This document shows, in pieces, positions 1,754 to 17,141 of a stretch of DNA of 64,000 nt. The position numbers and the translations under genes are program-made. The stretch spans positions 1,054,001 through 1,118,000 of the forward strand of contig MU006095.1 of NCBI GenBank assembly GCA_010093705.1, given 5' to 3'. Numbering within the stretch: position 1 is the stretch's first letter; each line of letters opens with the position of its first letter. The DNA is from Patellaria atrata CBS 101060. Lineage: Eukaryota. The notes beneath the pieces were generated by a model. That model was not told where the DNA came from. It saw only the letters and a list, made by a program, of their open reading frames with translations, and made no database searches.

Positions 1754-3405
1754 ATGGCAGGACACAACGATCCTCGTCTTCTCTATTCCATATCAGGGAT
1801 CAAGGCCTATCATATTCAGAATGGTGAGGAGCACGACTTGACACCGTCGGGACCACAGACGCTCTCCCTTCTTATGGTTCCAACTAACAGTCCTTTCGCT
1901 GATCTAAGGTATGATTTCATATCTTAAAATAGATTAGACAATAATAACTTATGGTCTAGCAATACTCTTGGTCAGAATGAAGCACCAGAAGAAGACTTTT
2001 ATCTCCATCTCCATCTCCCACCTGAGTTAGACCTACCAATGCCAGCCACAACTCAAATATATCACCAACCTCCACGAAGTTACCTTGTCCCTCGATGGGA
2101 CCTTGGGCCTGAAAATGCGGCATTCACTCGTATTGAGTTTCCAACGATAGGAAAAGGAGCGAATCAAGTCACACAAGAGGATGTAGATACATTCGAGACT
2201 ATCTTGGCTCAATGCACGGCTTTCCTGGAACGCGCAAGCCCTCCAAATGTGGAGAAGGGCTTATCGAGTACTACTAAGCCTTACAATCCGGCAGATTATG
2301 CTCCGGGAGAAGGCTACGCATCGAAAAATGAGAAGGGACATCCAGGCCAGATCGTTTTGGTAGATGAAGATAATGGAAGCGTGGTTGGAGAGCTTGCTGA
2401 AGGTGCACAAGTTGTAGAGGATCCAAAGTTGAAATATGGATCTAAAGGTACTCTTTACTGATATACCGTGCGCCATCATACCGTTACTGACGAAACATAG
2501 ACCCCGTTGAAGTCACAATATCCGCAGACGGAAACCGTGTCGATATCAAGCCTGTATCTGAGGATTATTTGCGCATGGCTAGACACCCAGCATACAAAAA
2601 TTCCTCAATGGTCCAAAATGCAGCAGCAGCTTCGAGGCTTATTGTCACGGGATCGTCGATGCTTAGCAATATTCTTACACAGGGAGCTGAAAATTTCACT
2701 CGAAAGACACAACCAACGCAGAAACCCCTAACGTTTGCGCCGGTCACGCATCAACGAGTCCGGAAGATGACAACATTTACCACGGGCGCTGCAGGCCTGT
2801 CTGCAAAGACAGTAGGCCAGGCCACGAAATTCGCTCAAAATCTGGGTGCTTCGCTCGCAGGACGGAAGGCGAAGAATCCTAAAGGATATGATAAAGATGG
2901 AAATCCGATTACAGACTATAAACCCGGTTTGCTCAACAAGTCCATGATCGCATTCTCGACCATTGCAGATGGTATTGAATATTCTGGGAAGAATCTCTTG
3001 ACGTCTAGCGGAGCTGCTGCGACCACGGTGGTTGGTCATCGATATGGTGAGGATGCGCGGTCTCTTGCCGCAGATCTTGCTGGTGGTATGAAGAATGTTG
3101 GTCTGGTCTATATCGATGTGACAGGTGTTTCGAGACGAGCAGTAATCAAATCAGTTGCAAAGGGCATGGTCGTTGGAAGAGTAAAGGGGGGTGGAGAGAT
3201 CGTAGTTGGAGGTGGTGATGGAGGTGTTGTCACCGCCCAAGATCTCCAGACTGCTGGTGGTGTCTCCAATAATAATCTTGGTCAAGGTCAGATCGCCGGT
3301 CCATCTGATCCCAGTGTGGTGGGTTTTGGCATGCAGTCAAATCCACAGGGATATCAACCTGGCATTGGTGATCCTCTTCACGGACAGCCAGCTCCTAAGA
3401 AGTGA
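1754..3405 (+). CDS. Spartin/senescence-domain protein (SPG20-like); exons ~1754-1908, 1960-2447, 2501-3405
   Basis: MAGHNDPRLLYSISGIKAYHIQNGEE...; the C-terminal amphipathic region (KSMIAFSTIADGIEYSGKNLLTSSGAAATTVVGHRYGEDA...KNVGLVYIDVTGVSRRAVIK) matches the senescence domain. Canonical GT-AG introns join the ORFs. Confidence 0.8.
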
Positions 3406-3881
3406 TGAGATAATTGATCTGGTGGTCTCACTGAGCAGTCGGATTCCGAGAAATGGTAGAGGGGTTTGGGCTGGTGGGTTTGTGAATGATGAATTGATCA
3501 CGGGTCATGAACATGCGGTTGAGAATTTCCTGTTTGGTCGACTGGAGGTTTGCTAGTAATTTCTTCAGTTAAATTCGCACCTACCTTCTTTGTGTTGCTA
3601 CAACTTCTTATTTCGAAAATACATTTTTCGATTATTCTGAACCTTGGTTCGGCTGCCATTGGCAAAAGACTCAAATCCATTCGATCCAAGCTCTTTTCCT
3701 TCCTGACATTTCTTACGTCTCCACTGAAACCTAAGCCTAAACTCTCTCGCACCCACCAGCTTTTTTCTTATTTTATTCGTGCTGCGAATAAAATCTTCTC
3801 ACAACGACACCTCTGTTGCACGGGAACCTAGCAACTCATCTCCAGCAAACTTAGCACATACTCGAATCGACTCAAAGCAAG

Positions 3882-10849: not shown

Positions 10850-12535
10850 TCAACATTCCGAATGATTGATCATATGCCGAATAGCCTCATACGCACCGAT
10901 CTCCTCCAACGTCGGCCTTGCCTCCTCGCCTTCAAACCTAATCGGATCCTGACCCTCTCTTCTCTTCATATGAAACCTATGCACCTGTTTCGCCGCGTCC
11001 AAAATCTGGAACCCAACGACATCGTACAAGCCATCGTACCTAAACCCTTTCTGCGGACGGTACTTATTCCCCTTATGCAGACCATGGCTCCTCAGCACTC
11101 TGACGGGTTCCAAGCCCTTCGCGCTCTCAACCATACGCTTCGTGTTTTCCGTACTTTCGCCGTTGCCGGTACCATCTGTACCACAGTACCAGACCTCCTC
11201 GCCCTCGTCGCGGTCCTGGTACTGAGAACCGCCTGATATAACGATAGAATATGCGCCCACCCCGCTCTTCCCCGCAATGCCACCTTGTGAGCTACCGTGC
11301 GCGCCGTCGCGTACGGCGCAGAGCTGGGTGGGCCACCATTGACCGTTAATCAGGCCGTTGTGGCCAAAGACGTCGGCGCGGACTTTGCCAGCGTAGCCCT
11401 TCGCGATGCTATCAGAGTTTCTGCCGACGGATTTCTTAGTCTCAATTCTGCCGGTGGATTTCTTGGTCTCGATTCCGCGCAGAAGATCGACGTCGACGAC
11501 TTTCAGATAGGCGAGTTGGGAGCACCATTTGTTGTACAGCATCTCCGCATCCGCTTTGATGTCCCATGGGAACTCGCAGCCTTTGTTGAATTCCTTGTCG
11601 AAGATTTGTGGGAGCCCGTCCTCGTTGTGGAGGATGCGGGCTTTGCGTAGCTGCCAACTGCTCGCGGCTTGGAATTCAAGGTAGTGAAGTTCCTTACGTA
11701 CGCGACCGAACTTGCTCTGAAGTGTGTCTGGGTGGCGTTCGGCTTGGCATTCGCGGATGAGTTCGCGGATGGCTCTAATGCGCTCGGCTAACTGACGGTT
11801 ACCCTGAGGCGGACGGGAGAGTTCTTTTGGGGTAAACGCAGTGTACCATTGGGGTGGTTCGCGTTTTGAGGAAGAGGCGGAGCCAATAGCATTTGGCGGG
11901 GAAGGATTCTGCGGTTTGTCTGAGGATGCGCTCTGTGGTACGATTTTCGGGCGTTTGGGAATGTTTGGTAAACTGCTGAAAGTTCGACTAGTTGACGTGG
12001 GATTCGATGATGCTGAAGTTGGTGAGTGCTCATTAGAGGAAGAGTGCTTTCTTTTGTGGGTCTCGGTGATTAGTTTTGCTAGAGATGCTGTTGGAGGTCG
12101 AGAATTAGTTACTCTCTTTGGGGCCTCTGTAGTTACAGCCGGAGTTGTTGTCTCGGAATTTGTCATTGTAGACTTAGCAACAATCGGAACAGAGTTTGTC
12201 GTTGTGGATCTACCAGCAGTTGCTGCTGGCCCCTTAGTTTTCGGAGGAACAGATGTTGTCTTTGGTCGGGAAGTGGAGGTTTCTTTGGTATCTGTCACCT
12301 CACGCTTGATGTCTGGTGTAGTAGATCGTGGGCTATCACATCTTTCGCTTTGCTGGGGAGTTTGTTCGACAGTAGGCTTAGCTGATTCGACTGGGCTCGC
12401 TCTCTTTTTGCCCCATCCTTGATAACGTTGAGCGGCACGCTCACGCGCAAGCTTGATGCCATCTTGGTTGTTGATGGCAGGAAATGAGAAGATGTCATCA
12501 TCGTCCGAAACCCTATTATGCGGTGTCGTAGACAT
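10850..12535 (-). CDS. SRA/YDG (SAD_SRA) domain protein with a long S/T/P-rich disordered N-terminus; intronless; likely start MSTTPH at 12535
   Basis: C-terminal GHNGLINGQWW...RDGAHGSSQGGIAG...GAYSIVISGG.QYQDRDEGEEVWYCG...PVRVLRS...YRPQKGFRYDGLYDV is the SRA/YDG signature. Confidence 0.9.
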   Translation of the reverse strand: MSTTPHNRVSDDDDIFSFPAINNQDGIKLARERAAQRYQGWGKKRASPVESAKPTVEQTPQQSERCDSPRSTTPDIKREVTDTKETSTSRPKTTSVPPKTKGPAATAGRSTTTNSVPIVAKSTMTNSETTTPAVTTEAPKRVTNSRPPTASLAKLITETHKRKHSSSNEHSPTSASSNPTSTSRTFSSLPNIPKRPKIVPQSASSDKPQNPSPPNAIGSASSSKREPPQWYTAFTPKELSRPPQGNRQLAERIRAIRELIRECQAERHPDTLQSKFGRVRKELHYLEFQAASSWQLRKARILHNEDGLPQIFDKEFNKGCEFPWDIKADAEMLYNKWCSQLAYLKVVDVDLLRGIETKKSTGRIETKKSVGRNSDSIAKGYAGKVRADVFGHNGLINGQWWPTQLCAVRDGAHGSSQGGIAGKSGVGAYSIVISGGSQYQDRDEGEEVWYCGTDGTGNGESTENTKRMVESAKGLEPVRVLRSHGLHKGNKYRPQKGFRYDGLYDVVGFQILDAAKQVHRFHMKRREGQDPIRFEGEEARPTLEEIGAYEAIRHMINHSEC

Positions 12536-13330
12536 GATGGTGTAGGTCACCTGATGTATAGTAAGTACGTTGTTTGCTGCTGGAGTGGAAAGTGGAGAAG
12601 AGGGGCCGGTTAGATAGGAGTTGCTCGGGTAGGAAACGGACATGAGCAAACTTGTGAAGGTGAGTCAAAGTTAGGTGTAACACACACAAAGACTGATGGG
12701 TTGTGAGTGACGAGAGATATTCGATTCTAAGGCTTCCACTGAAACACGACTTTAAGCACCCGGTAACGAGGTGAATCGAACTTAAACTCAGGTCAGACGA
12801 TTTTTGAATACGGGCGTTTTCGAAAAGTTTCAAAAAAGCAATGCAGCTGTATAAGAGTTGATGTTTTAGGAAATAAGAAGGATGTTGGGGAAATATATAC
12901 GGACGAATGTGCTCAGAAGAGGTTTGAAATAGTTCTACCGCTGAAAGTTCCAAACGGAACTCGATCAGATGATGAGAGTGACGATGCTGTTCAAACGGAA
13001 CCACCTGACAGCACGCTTCTTGCTCCGTAGAAACTGAAATATGAGATAATGAAATGGTCTGATCTAGTCGTGAATAAATATGAGATATGTGTACAGTACC
13101 TACGTGGGAAAATCTAGATGACCAAAATCTATATGTGCTGAACCCAATCGTGCCAATCTAAAGAGGGAATATCATTCCAGACTCCACTCTGATCCTTTAT
13201 GTATTAATAACGATGTATCCCTCTTGAATATTCACTATTAAGTCTCGAGTCACTGTTTTTCCCGAGGGATTGGGATTTTTGGTTCGGACACGGGAAGCCG
13301 TCAACTTGACGCGGGTCGGGAAGAAATTTA

Positions 13331-13503: not shown

Positions 13504-14007
13504 TAAAATAAAGAATCCCCTCCCGCAAGTCAACCCCATGCTTCCTAAAGTTTTCCATCCATCGGGATAACTTTTGTAGACATTAGCGGACTATCGTTTC
13601 AAACACAAAGACATGCATGTATAGTATGATGCACTATACTTGCGTAGTTTAAAAGAGCTGAGGGAAATACGAGGATCATATATATTTCTCAGCTAAGATT
13701 TTTCACACCAACGCATGAAAATGGCTGATTTTCGTATGGCCTCACCTGTGTGGAATCTCAACACCAATGAAGGAACTGCGAAATTTCTCGACTCTAGAGA
13801 TATTCCTTCTACTTGCATAGGTCGACTACAGACCGCTTAGACGCCACGTCGTAAGAAAAGCCAGAGGCTTCAAAGAGACGAGATGGCGACCTTAACTCCT
13901 GCTGAAATTGCTAGGTTTACGAATGATGTTAACCTTTCCGAGGCATTGGACAAGACCTGCAGAAGCTTCCGTTGTATCAGGAGAAAGTGGATAGAATTCA
14001 TCTATCT

Positions 14008-14014
14008 ATATAAA
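14008..14014 (+). promoter_or_regulatory. Putative TATA box of the 14156 gene
   Basis: A TATAAA element about 145 nt upstream of the ATG, followed by a pyrimidine-rich tract near 14100-14120. Confidence 0.45.
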
Positions 14015-14155: not shown

Positions 14156-15525
14156 ATGCAAACTCCTCCTAAAGGTGAAGCACTAGCCCTGAACAACGAG
14201 CTTATGACCAAGGAATGGGGCAGAATTAATCCCTCAGACTTCCCCAATCTCCACCGAGAGCATTGCACCTTGACAGATTATCACATTGATACTTACAACT
14301 GTATTGCATGGTCAGTAGGAGAAAAACAATTCTGGATCTCTCCTCCCAAAACCAGGGATGAATTCGTGAAACTATGTAAGGCCAATACATTCTTCTGATT
14401 GCACCTACTAATAAAATCTAGATGAAATTTTTGGCGCGGAAGAGATTAAGAAGAAGGACGACCCACGTGTGTTCGCTGCTGGCTATCTCAAAAATGGAGT
14501 ACCAACCCATGCTGCTCGCGTCTATAATGAGCTATGGGAAAGCAAATTTGGTGAAGGTCCAAGACTGACCCATCCTCCAACTGGTCTTGATGGAAGCAAT
14601 TCATATGGAAGCGCTACTATCTACTTTTCTACACCCTATGATCCCGCAGGAAAGCTCAACCAACTGCGCGAGCTTGTTGCGAATAGAAAGCCCAAGACTG
14701 ATCTTACGCCAATCCGACAAAATTTGGAACAGCATTGTCAACCTTTATTTAAAGCATTCGACGATCATCTCAAGGCCTGGGAAGCAGCATGTAAGAAAAT
14801 GTCAAAAGATACTCTGTATGGCATGGCTCCAGTACTGCGTCAAAAGATTGCCTACTTTGCTGACACAGATTTGTAGCCCGGCTGAATATGCACAGATTCA
14901 GGAATGCAACCCACTTCTCGCGCTGGGGCCAAAGATTTTGCCGTTACTCGTAGAGAAATTTCCCTCTGGCGACTTTGGCTTCGCTGCGGGACTCTGTACG
15001 TTCAGCCATAACAAACACAATGTCAAGAGCTACCAAAACTTACTAATCCTCTGAGCAGATGATAAACTCCAAAGCGATCACAGGTATACAGTGCCTGCAG
15101 ACCGGGTTGATATAAAATGCACGCTGAAAGCAGAATCCTTGAAGATCGTTGACCTCTATGTCGAGGACTTTTTCAACGTCATCGTACGCACAGCTCTACA
15201 GAATTTTGAAAAACCGAAAAAGCCCTTTGCAAATCGTCAGGAACTCTTAAAGTCAAATGAATTCCTAGACATTGCGCAACAGGGATGGAAAGTTATTCCC
15301 TTCATGTTGGACTCCTATATCAAGCAGCATCGTGAAGGCAAAGCAAGTTTGTGGCATATCGTGTTAGAAGAATTCAATAATCCGAAGGGACAAACGGACA
15401 AACCGATCGCTGCGAGCACGAAGGCAGATTTCGACAAATGGATCGACTGGTTCAACAAAGTCACACCTCAGCAATGGAGTGATGGCGATCACAAGCTCTA
15501 CGAAAAATATCAAAACGATATCTAG
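14156..15525 (+). CDS. 399-aa protein: N-terminal Cys-His papain-like (DUF7689-like) domain plus two helical repeats; exons 14156-14375, 14422-14815, 14877-14995, 15059-15525
   Basis: Three GT-AG introns with CTAAT/CTGAC branch points join four ORF pieces into 1200 nt with no internal stop. Motifs FPNL...YNCIAWSVG...W...PTHAAR...WESKFG...H...LDG..YG; repeats LLALGPKILPLLVEK and DIAQQGWKVIPFMLDS. Confidence 0.8.
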
Positions 15526-17141
15526 GAAATCACAGCTATAGTTTCGTAGATCTCCCTCTGCACGGTTCTTATTCCATTACATATATCTTTCTCATTGCAC
15601 TGTTGTTTTCTTCCAAAGACTGTCCTTATAGCTTAATACATTCTATTCATCCCCTACCGTGGTTCTCCTCACCCGATGTATACTCCACTCCAGGGGAATC
15701 TCCGGCTCCTATATACATGAATTGACACAACGTACGGGTGCGTTCCAACAGAACAGACAATCCAATCGTGTGAATACGTTTAGCGGATACCTAGCTGTCG
15801 AGGCGCCCCTAAGTCTACTGTACAAAAAAGGGAGTGCATTTGAGAAATGTGCAGCCATACAATTCAACCTCCCGTCCATCCACCTCACATACGCCGACCT
15901 ACCTATCCGTCTACCCCCCTGTGAGCGGTCTCTAGTAATTGTGTTCCAACTATCTAGTCCAGATGCTATCTACAATCAAGATAAAGGAGAAAAGAAGAGT
16001 CTGAGGGCAGATTTGAGGAAAATATTACTGGCTGATCTTCGGATGCAGGGCGCGCCCATACCACTAGGCTCTAGCCTGTTACACCCCCCACACCACACAG
16101 ATGCCCAATATCCCACATCCCATTTTTACACCTCACCACTGGTATACTTAGTATACGGGACACAGGCCAAGAAATATCTACCAGATGCTGTAGTTGAATC
16201 TTCACCCCGGTCTTATATACCCTATGATGCTACCGTGGGTCTAGCTCTGGATGATTGCTATTACGTTGTAGTGTTGTGCTCCGTCGTACAGTGGCGGTTA
16301 TTGGATGTACTGGGGTGATGTAGTGTAGTGTAGTATAGTGTACTATATTGTACTGTGGAGGTTGCGCATCCAGTAGGGAGACTAGAGTTACTACAATCTA
16401 AATTCAGTGAGGCTGTGTGTTATCATACCTCGGGTTCGATTACTGTTAGGACTGGACCGTTTACCGTGTTCTCGCCTGACAAAGTGACTCTGTACCAGCC
16501 CCGGAGGAAATATGCTATGTACAATACAATCTTTCCAAGCCATCGTCTGCTTGTTAATATTCGGGAAGAACGATTGTCAAGTGGGAAGTTGTAGGCTCTG
16601 TCATGGTCGCAAACTTGGAGTTGGGTCCACGCCTCAACCCTTTAGAGTTAAGAGATACTTTGATTATGTAACAAGCTAACCTCAAACGATAACTTGACCT
16701 CATCTCTTTCATTCTTTCATTTCCAAAACCAACTACCCAATTTTGTGATTCAGGTCTATAGAATGTCGCTTCTTCCTCTAGCCCGTGTACCACATTAAAT
16801 GTGTTCCTCAGATATCTATATGGTTGTCTAAGAGTCTGGACCGATGGGAGGCTTTCTATGGCAAGAACAAAGTCCAAACAATGACTACAGAAGCTTATTA
16901 CGATGACTTAGACTGCTCGAGTATAATAACCAAAAATTATTAGGAAATATCCTCAACAGCTCTTCCTAAGACGGTTAAACCACTACCTACCTGTTATATT
17001 AGATGTATCTTTCTAATTTTGATACCTCCTCTTCCTCCTCTTCCTCTTCTTCAAAAAAAGAACTAGGTAGATACCTAAAGTATACGAAATTATATTAAGT
17101 CCGCTTTAATAGAAAGTCTAAGTAGGAAAGAAAAAATTGGC

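Follow-up and report, generated by a model that had tools for sequence, protein, structure and literature searches.

A gene of Patellaria atrata that resembles a toxin and its antidote joined in one protein

Type II toxin-antitoxin systems are two-gene operons in which the toxin is bound directly by a small partner encoded upstream. Here we compare such systems with a gene of the fungus Patellaria atrata CBS 101060, located on the plus strand at 14156..15525 of a stretch of 64,000 nucleotides (nt) that we call the window (assembly GCA_010093705.1, contig MU006095.1, positions 1,054,001 to 1,118,000 of the forward strand); its predicted product of 399 amino acids (aa) joins a domain of the Pfam family DUF7689 to two helical modules, and from its sequence the gene looks like a toxin-antidote pair in one gene. 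The closest described system, according to the available part of Zhang et al. 2012 (PMC3482391), is a papain-like toxin with a dedicated, sometimes fused inhibitor: Tox-PL1 is a papain-fold domain with an NC motif and a His, found at the C-termini of polymorphic toxins, and Imm35 is the proposed peptidase inhibitor. The same part of that source presents the transfer of bacterial toxin domains to fungi as a known theme. A second comparison is offered by EAT14, which the accessible text of PMC11297309 describes as a transglutaminase-like enzyme with a papain fold that follows DUF4157/eCIS_core and is toxic to both bacteria and yeast.

The P. atrata gene would work like Tox-PL1/Imm35 but is not a member of that system, as far as the available part of PMC3482391 allows the comparison: the Tox-PL1 signature is NC-H-DxQ, whereas DUF7689 has NC-H-(E/T/S)SK with an additional invariant His and YG and no conserved DxQ; Imm35 is alpha+beta, whereas the DUF7689 partner is all-helical, and none of 37 partners matched Imm35. 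In other proteins DUF7689 stands behind eCIS_core, in the same position as EAT14, but the tested residues of EAT14 follow the order Cys-Asp-His, unlike the DUF7689 pattern (compared by description only, from the accessible text of PMC11297309). The best fold matches are NlpC/P60, CHAP and Tae3-type amidases (6bim, 3h41, 8tw1, 4hz9), yet identity is 3-13% and no Pfam match links them to the family, many of whose members, in a further difference, lack export signals. The third triad residue of NlpC/P60 is a His in the part of PMC10318531 available to us, whereas the matching strand of DUF7689 carries Ser-Lys.

The literature search found no paper with the term DUF7689, a family with no described function. 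Among the titles and abstract beginnings searched, nothing was found on the family, its partner or the single-gene architecture, and the supplements of PMC3482391 may list the family under another name. An event of this kind is not new, since fungi are already known from that source to have received bacterial toxin domains by transfer; what the searches did not find described is this family, with its partner and its architecture in a single gene. Sequence and models together suggest, with a probability of about 0.6, that the product of the gene is a cytosolic thiol enzyme with its own plug, which descends from a bacterial toxin-immunity family and has been retained in fungi for use in conflict. 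The analysis gives DUF7689 a probable fold, a candidate catalytic triad, a dedicated partner and a predicted mode of inhibition, and finds one pair in three forms: an operon with an upstream partner, a downstream immunity-type gene and a fusion.

Enzyme domain and helical modules

Residues 40-142 match DUF7689 (PF24738) with 65.7 bits against a cut-off of 22.6 (E 8e-18), in agreement with a preliminary description of the gene, made from the letters of the DNA, which had named DUF7689-like bacterial proteins. No other Pfam family was reported for the 399-aa protein at E up to 10, in a search whose filters drop weak matches; in particular, NlpC/P60 (PF00877), CHAP and amidase families gave no match. 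The motifs quoted in the preliminary description are all present: FPNL at residue 29, YNCIAWSVG at 47, PTHAAR at 101, WESKFG at 112 and SYG at 134 and, in the C-terminal part, LLALGPKILPLLVEK at 218, IAQQGWKVIPFMLDS at 316, LWHIVL at 342 and WIDWF at 372.

To count conservation, 297 distinct DUF7689 N domains were gathered. Cys49 (codon 14300..14302, plus strand), the predicted nucleophile, is a Cys in 288 of them, and His103 (14508..14510, plus strand), the predicted catalytic base, is a His in 291, so that the Cys and the His noted earlier are kept in nearly all of these domains. Ser114 and Lys115 (14541..14546, plus strand) are kept in 294 and 296 domains, respectively, and the other conserved residues are Tyr47 (291), Asn48 (290), Gly117 (293), His124 (291), Tyr135 (290) and Gly136 (293). 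Ser114 is a candidate third triad residue, and Cys-His-Ser triads are described for Tae3, RavD and vasohibin (PMC10318531, in its available part); the strand after His103 carries E/T-S-K and does not match the third-residue His of NlpC/P60. In one planctomycete locus (L051, 2777-3541) a signal-bearing DUF7689 paralogue that has neither the catalytic Cys nor the His lies directly upstream of an intact copy.

The full-length AlphaFold model, built on a 90-row alignment, has a mean predicted local distance difference test score (pLDDT) of 89.7 and a predicted template modelling score (pTM) of 0.85. Helix 49-53 begins at Cys49, and of the strands 90-97, 100-108 and 111-115 the last two, successive in the model, carry His103 and Ser114. 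In a wide structural search 20 of the top 21 rows aligned to the N-domain, mostly with the titles NlpC/P60, CHAP-type endolysin, autolysin or endopeptidase. The best match of residues 37-147 was 6bim (Z 6.3, root-mean-square deviation 3.6, 95 residues aligned), where a Z below 8 is weak by itself; Josephin, AvrPphB and Tae3 (Z 4.4) followed lower in the list, and a sequence search of solved structures gave a best E of only 0.12. Since the structural rows agree with each other and with the Cys/His pattern, a papain-like fold of the N-domain is likely, and the fold proposed earlier from the order of Cys and His is supported, at a middling Z.

The C-terminal part holds helical module 1 (residues ~173-280; 14718..15165, plus strand, across introns 2 and 3) and helical module 2 (residues ~286-379; 15181..15462, plus strand). 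They are homologous by profile comparison (95.6%, E 1e-8, with module-1 rows taken only from one-module proteins), which bears out the earlier view of two related helical units.

A search of cluster representatives gave 222 matches at E 0.001, the best 150 of which were examined, and 178 proteins were sorted by profile into four forms: enzyme alone, enzyme with one module, enzyme with two modules, and two modules without enzyme. Enzyme with one module was the commonest form among the best matches, and identity of the P. atrata protein to other representatives was at most 29% among the matches listed. DUF7689 also forms the C-terminus of the RHS protein P0110 and of the eCIS_core proteins P0140 and P0154-P0168, with RHS and eCIS_core C-termini that have no fused module among them, and follows Hint domains in some proteins. 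In a metagenome scan for loci combining eCIS_core and DUF7689, one of 73 loci weakly matched the enzyme profile and the rest had eCIS_core alone. Among the more unusual architectures, P0128 has a MACPF domain fused to enzyme and module 1, and two Lachnospiraceae proteins of more than 1000 aa (L015, 1403-4810; L020, 1688-4819) carry Hint, SKICH, DUF7689 and module 1.

Partner genes and predicted docking

The preliminary description had mentioned a small helical protein encoded next to bacterial DUF7689 enzymes, and such a partner does exist. A scan of GTDB matched 143 stretches, of which 100 were confirmed and 80 loci kept: 46 loci had a separate abutting partner gene (45 upstream and one downstream), 21 had enzyme and module fused, four had the module in a separate frame just downstream and nine had none. 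The upstream gene often overlaps that of the enzyme. In an independent set, an upstream partner was found in 19 of 19 viral loci (~13 distinct). The partner consensus, F..L...W..ET...S......HP....I..MG..AVP.IL..L...P..W..AL..ITG..PV......WL.W, fits the pattern given in that description. A partner profile trained on the 80 GTDB loci, from 42 seeds found via fused-module profiles, matched solely beside DUF7689 among 5663 frames, in the same loci that served for training. The fused loci belong to Actinomycetota, Bacteroidota, Bacillota, Chloroflexota, Spirochaetota and Pseudomonadota; the joining of enzyme and module 1 is widespread in bacteria and, contrary to the earlier proposal, was not made in the fungus.

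In further genomes, PF24738 was found in 33/401 of Myxococcota (the phylum of locus L049), 16/401 of Bacteroidota (L009), 3/401 of Pseudomonadota (L032) and 0/14 controls. In 23 of 30 Myxococcota loci a frame of at least 430 aa ended with DUF7689, and in all 23 the partner followed directly downstream (closely related sequences), and an N-terminal DUF6209 domain was checked by Pfam in one of these long forms; five other Myxococcota loci had an upstream partner. In the 19 Bacteroidota loci, two of which are one place, the partner was upstream in ten and fused in three, and in the three Pseudomonadota loci it was upstream in two and absent from one.

The partner is modelled with six helices and no strand. 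No Pfam family matched consistently among 37 partners, and no DNA-binding domain was detected by Pfam in their last 100 residues. The fold search returned generic helical-solenoid rows only (best Z 5.6), Foldseek gave nothing at E 0.001, and PHROGs matched neither enzyme nor partner (14 proteins). The relatives, and only they, thus share with type II toxin-antitoxin operons the small upstream partner and, by prediction, direct binding, but differ in that no DNA-binding domain was detected in the partner and that it also occurs downstream and fused. Likewise only in relatives, enzyme domains that end RHS and eCIS_core proteins, and the small gene downstream of all 23 long Myxococcota forms, resemble polymorphic toxins with their immunity genes.

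Enzymes of the upstream-partner operons mostly start straight with the domain. Eight of the nine partner-less GTDB enzymes are planctomycete, and six of the nine have N-termini that look signal-like by eye, one of them with a ricin-type lectin domain; a few viral partners also have signal-like N-termini. Several loci carry additional genes. A DUF6941 gene lies directly 5' of the partner-enzyme pair in L039, L066, L070 (~3190-3576) and L078 (3176-3559), which suggests a three-gene unit, and the term DUF6941 was in no paper found by the literature search. A ClpP-like SDH protease adjoins the pair in L066 and L082, two pairs stand in tandem in L074 (3581-5478), and in two viral loci (L090, 1827-2579; L103, 1776-2531) a phrog_5464-like gene precedes the partner.

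Docking of the partner on the catalytic site, which the preliminary description had envisaged, is inhibitor-like in a complex model of a bacterial pair, that of locus L071, and not of the fungal protein: the model scored 0.85 and the best control 0.02, the partner had a pLDDT of 93 and the contacts agreed 100% across three runs. Of 78 solved complexes 51 attained the score mark, as did 2 of 108 mismatched pairs; the modelling made no use of alignments. On the enzyme side the interface comprises residues 27-29, 97-98, 112-115 and 129-130, that is, the YNC, His, post-SK and YG motifs, and includes Asn27, Cys28 and His98; on the partner side it is formed by loop 21-28, whose Ser25 contacts both Asn27 and His98. 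This loop, between helices 1 and 2 and centred on a conserved Ser, is thus predicted to sit on the Cys/His cleft. The same Ser is present in 68 of 72 upstream partners, 22 of 23 downstream partners and 91 of 108 fused modules. The equivalent loops of the full-length P. atrata model are 199-205 and 296-303; plugging of the active site is predicted for the family from the model of the pair, and we only infer it for the P. atrata protein. The three Rhodocollybia paralogues (P0012, P0099, P0151) keep the Cys and the His, but neither of their modules still has the plug Ser.

In the proposed mechanism, module 1 would plug the enzyme in cis and keep it off, while module 2, as a second unit of inhibitor type, could engage a different enzyme molecule or act as a reserve; activity would begin once the plug is displaced or cut away. 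The Cys would then, at about even odds, attack an amide in a target protein, either of a peptide bond or of a side chain, a choice made because many members lack an export signal and because the partner presents a peptide loop to the cleft. The role in fungi would probably be conflict, either microbial antagonism or self/non-self killing, and not core metabolism.

Fungal distribution, origin of the modules and competing explanations

Three-part proteins, with the enzyme and two modules, were found in nine genera: Patellaria, Pseudogymnoascus, Hypoxylon, Peziza, Rhodocollybia (three copies), Xylographa, Pyrenochaeta, Thozetella and Lambiella. The six genera that were checked fall into six classes and two phyla, and the named three-part proteins are 22-29% identical to that of P. 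atrata. No prokaryotic protein was present among the named two-module records, and the fused prokaryotic loci had no second module. A quick unrooted tree of enzyme and module 1 (94 of 114 rows after thinning at 50% identity, Thozetella excluded on length) grouped the 11 two-module rows by a branch with a support of 88 in the Shimodaira-Hasegawa-like approximate likelihood ratio test (SH-aLRT), inside a set supported at 98 that includes nine GTDB prokaryote rows. This grouping speaks for the bacterial origin proposed earlier. The simplest reading of these sequences is a single old transfer from bacteria, followed by loss or fungus-to-fungus spread; no donor lineage was identifiable from the 94-row tree.

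Enzyme-less two-module records of 206-271 aa come from Parathielavia, Corynascus, Madurella, Chaetomium, Cladorrhinum, Podospora and Cytospora. Four of them have a common N-terminal sequence pattern, which argues for a true start of these records, and in module 2 the same four share the motif W-x-E-H-C with the downstream partners of Myxococcota (one has Y in place of H). The enzyme-less records are known from protein sequences alone, and an upstream enzyme exon or gene may have been missed. In one Chaetothyriales protein (P0107) three modules are linked to an Es2 domain and the enzyme domain is lacking; the link may be an annotation fusion.

The two modules have different best matches. Module 1 is closest to the bacterial fused class (profile 99.8%, 114 columns), which was the best class in 18 of 18 fungal-type sequences. 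Module 2 scores best against the downstream free partners (98.9%, 95 columns), a class low in diversity, then against fused modules (98.1%, 60 columns) and fungal module 1 (96.9%), and a free-standing partner class was best for it in 16 of 18 fungal-type sequences, with two near ties. A quick tree of 131 rows separated fungal module 1 and fused modules from fungal module 2 and free partners (SH-aLRT 98). Approximately unbiased (AU) tests of a clade of module 1 and module 2 left it standing three times: p was 0.66 with 63 rows, the clade being 10 log units above the free quick tree; 0.24 in a second test, the clade being 19 log units below the alternative; and 0.31 with 75 rows, the clade being 4 log units lower. 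Profile and motif favour capture of a downstream partner gene. Neither duplication nor capture is accepted as shown: module 2 scores best against free partner classes in 16 of 18 sequences, and the three AU tests leave duplication standing. Hence, of the duplicated partner of the preliminary description, the homology of the modules stands and the duplication is not established.

Several observations weigh against a self-plugged enzyme from a toxin-immunity family. On the side of the relatives, the partner is absent from two of 30 Myxococcota and six of 19 Bacteroidota loci; PADLOC matched neither enzyme nor partner (13 proteins); and the 109 neighbouring frames of 30 upstream-partner loci (at most two per side) are mixed, mostly metabolic or unknown, mobile or defence-type domains among them being integrase, IS240, HNH, TIR, Cas1 and AAA_21. 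N-termini are signal-like in 15 of 94 one-module fusions, and some fusions carry type IX secretion system tails; such proteins have no obvious need of self-protection, and they also speak against a purely cytoplasmic toxin-antitoxin reading. As to the models, the best fold Z lies under the caution line, Foldseek found no match for the full model among PDB and viral models at E 0.001, and in an older run 7 of 44 pairs of neighbouring genes, taken blind, also attained the score mark of the complexes. In the fungi, the plug Ser occurs in 7 of 18 fungal-type sequences in module 1 (Gln in five) and in 11 of 18 in module 2, and the P. atrata protein has it in neither, the position being Thr204 (14811-14813) in module 1 and Ala302 (15229-15231) in module 2; the protein has no delivery domain or signal and sits on the longest branch of the tree (1.73), in which 72 of 94 rows have no organism label. 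Finally, a substrate would occupy the same cleft, and in a model a substrate loop would look alike.

This last point bears on a less probable alternative, in which the module is the substrate or an obligate subunit of the enzyme. The Ser loop would then sit in the cleft to be cut or modified, or would position the substrate, and the fused protein would be an enzyme of two parts that processes itself and has no toxic role. A substrate loop would yield the same interface as in the complex model, fusions are commonest among the closest matches and some are exported, and the Gln found at the plug position of some fungal module-1 sequences is a residue on which papain-fold deamidases act. An obligate partnership is, however, hard to match with enzymes that have no module at all (at eCIS_core and RHS C-termini and in nine GTDB loci), with the small downstream gene of Myxococcota, which is the usual toxin-immunity order, and with the enzyme-less two-module records of fungi. 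Still less probable is a cell-envelope hydrolase of NlpC/P60, CHAP or Tae3 type, acting on peptidoglycan or lipoprotein amide bonds, which fungi would have domesticated against bacteria; it would carry the modules as a cap and be set free on lysis. The fold rows of the N-domain, most of which bear the titles of such enzymes, point in this direction, as do the exported forms, including the one with a ricin-type lectin domain, and the available part of PMC10318531 describes both a Cys-His-Ser triad in Tae3 and a Tae2-like amidase domesticated by ticks. But none of 11 scored three-part fungal-type proteins has a hydrophobic N-terminus, the enzymes of upstream-partner operons, which mostly begin with the domain, would not reach the wall, and no NlpC/P60, CHAP or amidase family matches in Pfam. 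The least probable of these explanations is that the P. atrata copy has been drifting since an old transfer and survives as a relic that no longer has a function: its long branch, its low identity to other representatives listed, the plug Ser missing from both modules and a repeat insertion nearby would fit decay, but the open frame of 399 codons with three clean introns and a TATA box, the confident model and the retention of Tyr47, Asn48, Cys49, His103, Ser114, Lys115, Gly117, His124, Tyr135 and Gly136 would not.

If the gene is indeed a self-plugged enzyme kept for conflict, a further step, which we put forward as speculative and rather unlikely, would be a fungal poison-antidote system. 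The three-part genes would be latent killers with a cis plug and a trans antidote, the enzyme-less genes would be orphan antidotes against fungal or bacterial DUF7689 enzymes, and divergence of the plug loop would set self/non-self specificity. Were this so, fungal conflict biology would gain, in the latent effectors, a toxin-antidote module with a papain fold, and the fungal genes that have no enzyme part would represent eukaryotic orphan immunity genes.

Gene structure and genomic setting

The predicted gene model was recomputed as proposed earlier, with four exons and three canonical introns giving 1200 nt of coding sequence, 399 aa and no internal stops. All exons are on the plus strand: exon 1 (14156..14375) encodes residues 1-73, including Tyr47-Asn48-Cys49; exon 2 (14422..14815) encodes His103, Ser114-Lys115, His124, Tyr135-Gly136, the linker and the start of module 1; exon 3 (14877..14995) encodes the core of module 1; and exon 4 (15059..15525) encodes the end of module 1, module 2 and the stop codon. 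Exons 1 and 2 match DUF7689 individually (E 1.5e-5 and 1.8e-7, respectively). A search with exon 2 returned a single longer protein, P0001, a 399-aa P. atrata hypothetical protein with the same four exon translations in the same order, an agreement with annotation only. In a genome search the gene was present as one locus.

Intron 1 (14376..14421) has 46 nt (GTAAGG...TAG), intron 2 (14816..14876) has 61 nt (GTATGG...TAG), and intron 3 (14996..15058) has 63 nt (GTACGT...CAG) and is in frame but contains a stop, the frame ending at 15054. The acceptors are TAG, TAG and CAG, and a CTRAY branch motif lies 13-16 nt 5' of the acceptor in all three. Intron 2 starts one codon past Thr204, the plug-loop residue of module 1 (window 14811-14816), which may be due to chance.

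The TATA box of the preliminary description is found as TATATAAA (14007..14014, plus strand), a consensus match only, 149 nt 5' of the ATG. The protein has no hydrophobic N-terminus, the top 11-residue hydropathy in the first 40 aa being 0.23 by a simple window score that is not a signal-peptide predictor; within that limit the lack of a signal peptide noted earlier is confirmed.

The gene had also been said to occupy the only accessory-looking interval of the window, which holds in part: the sole window copy of a solo-long terminal repeat (LTR)-like repeat lies ~400 nt downstream, but the flanking genes are ordinary (GH5, SAD/SRA, RRP7, CDC20) and the G+C content at third codon positions (GC3) is 0.457, within the span of 0.39-0.80 of 17 neighbouring frames. 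Compared with these frames, codon composition does not signal recent transfer, and an unremarkable GC3 is expected of an old, intron-bearing gene. The solo-LTR-like repeat (window 15920-16083) has 164 nt, TG...CA ends and a 5-nt target duplication, CCCCC. It represents a recent family, with 40 scored genome copies that are 91-99% identical to the window copy and the duplications CTGTT and AAAAC at two others. The upstream neighbour, on the minus strand at window 10853-12664, is a frame of 604 aa that carries a SAD/SRA domain and, in its N-terminal part, a long stretch of low complexity.

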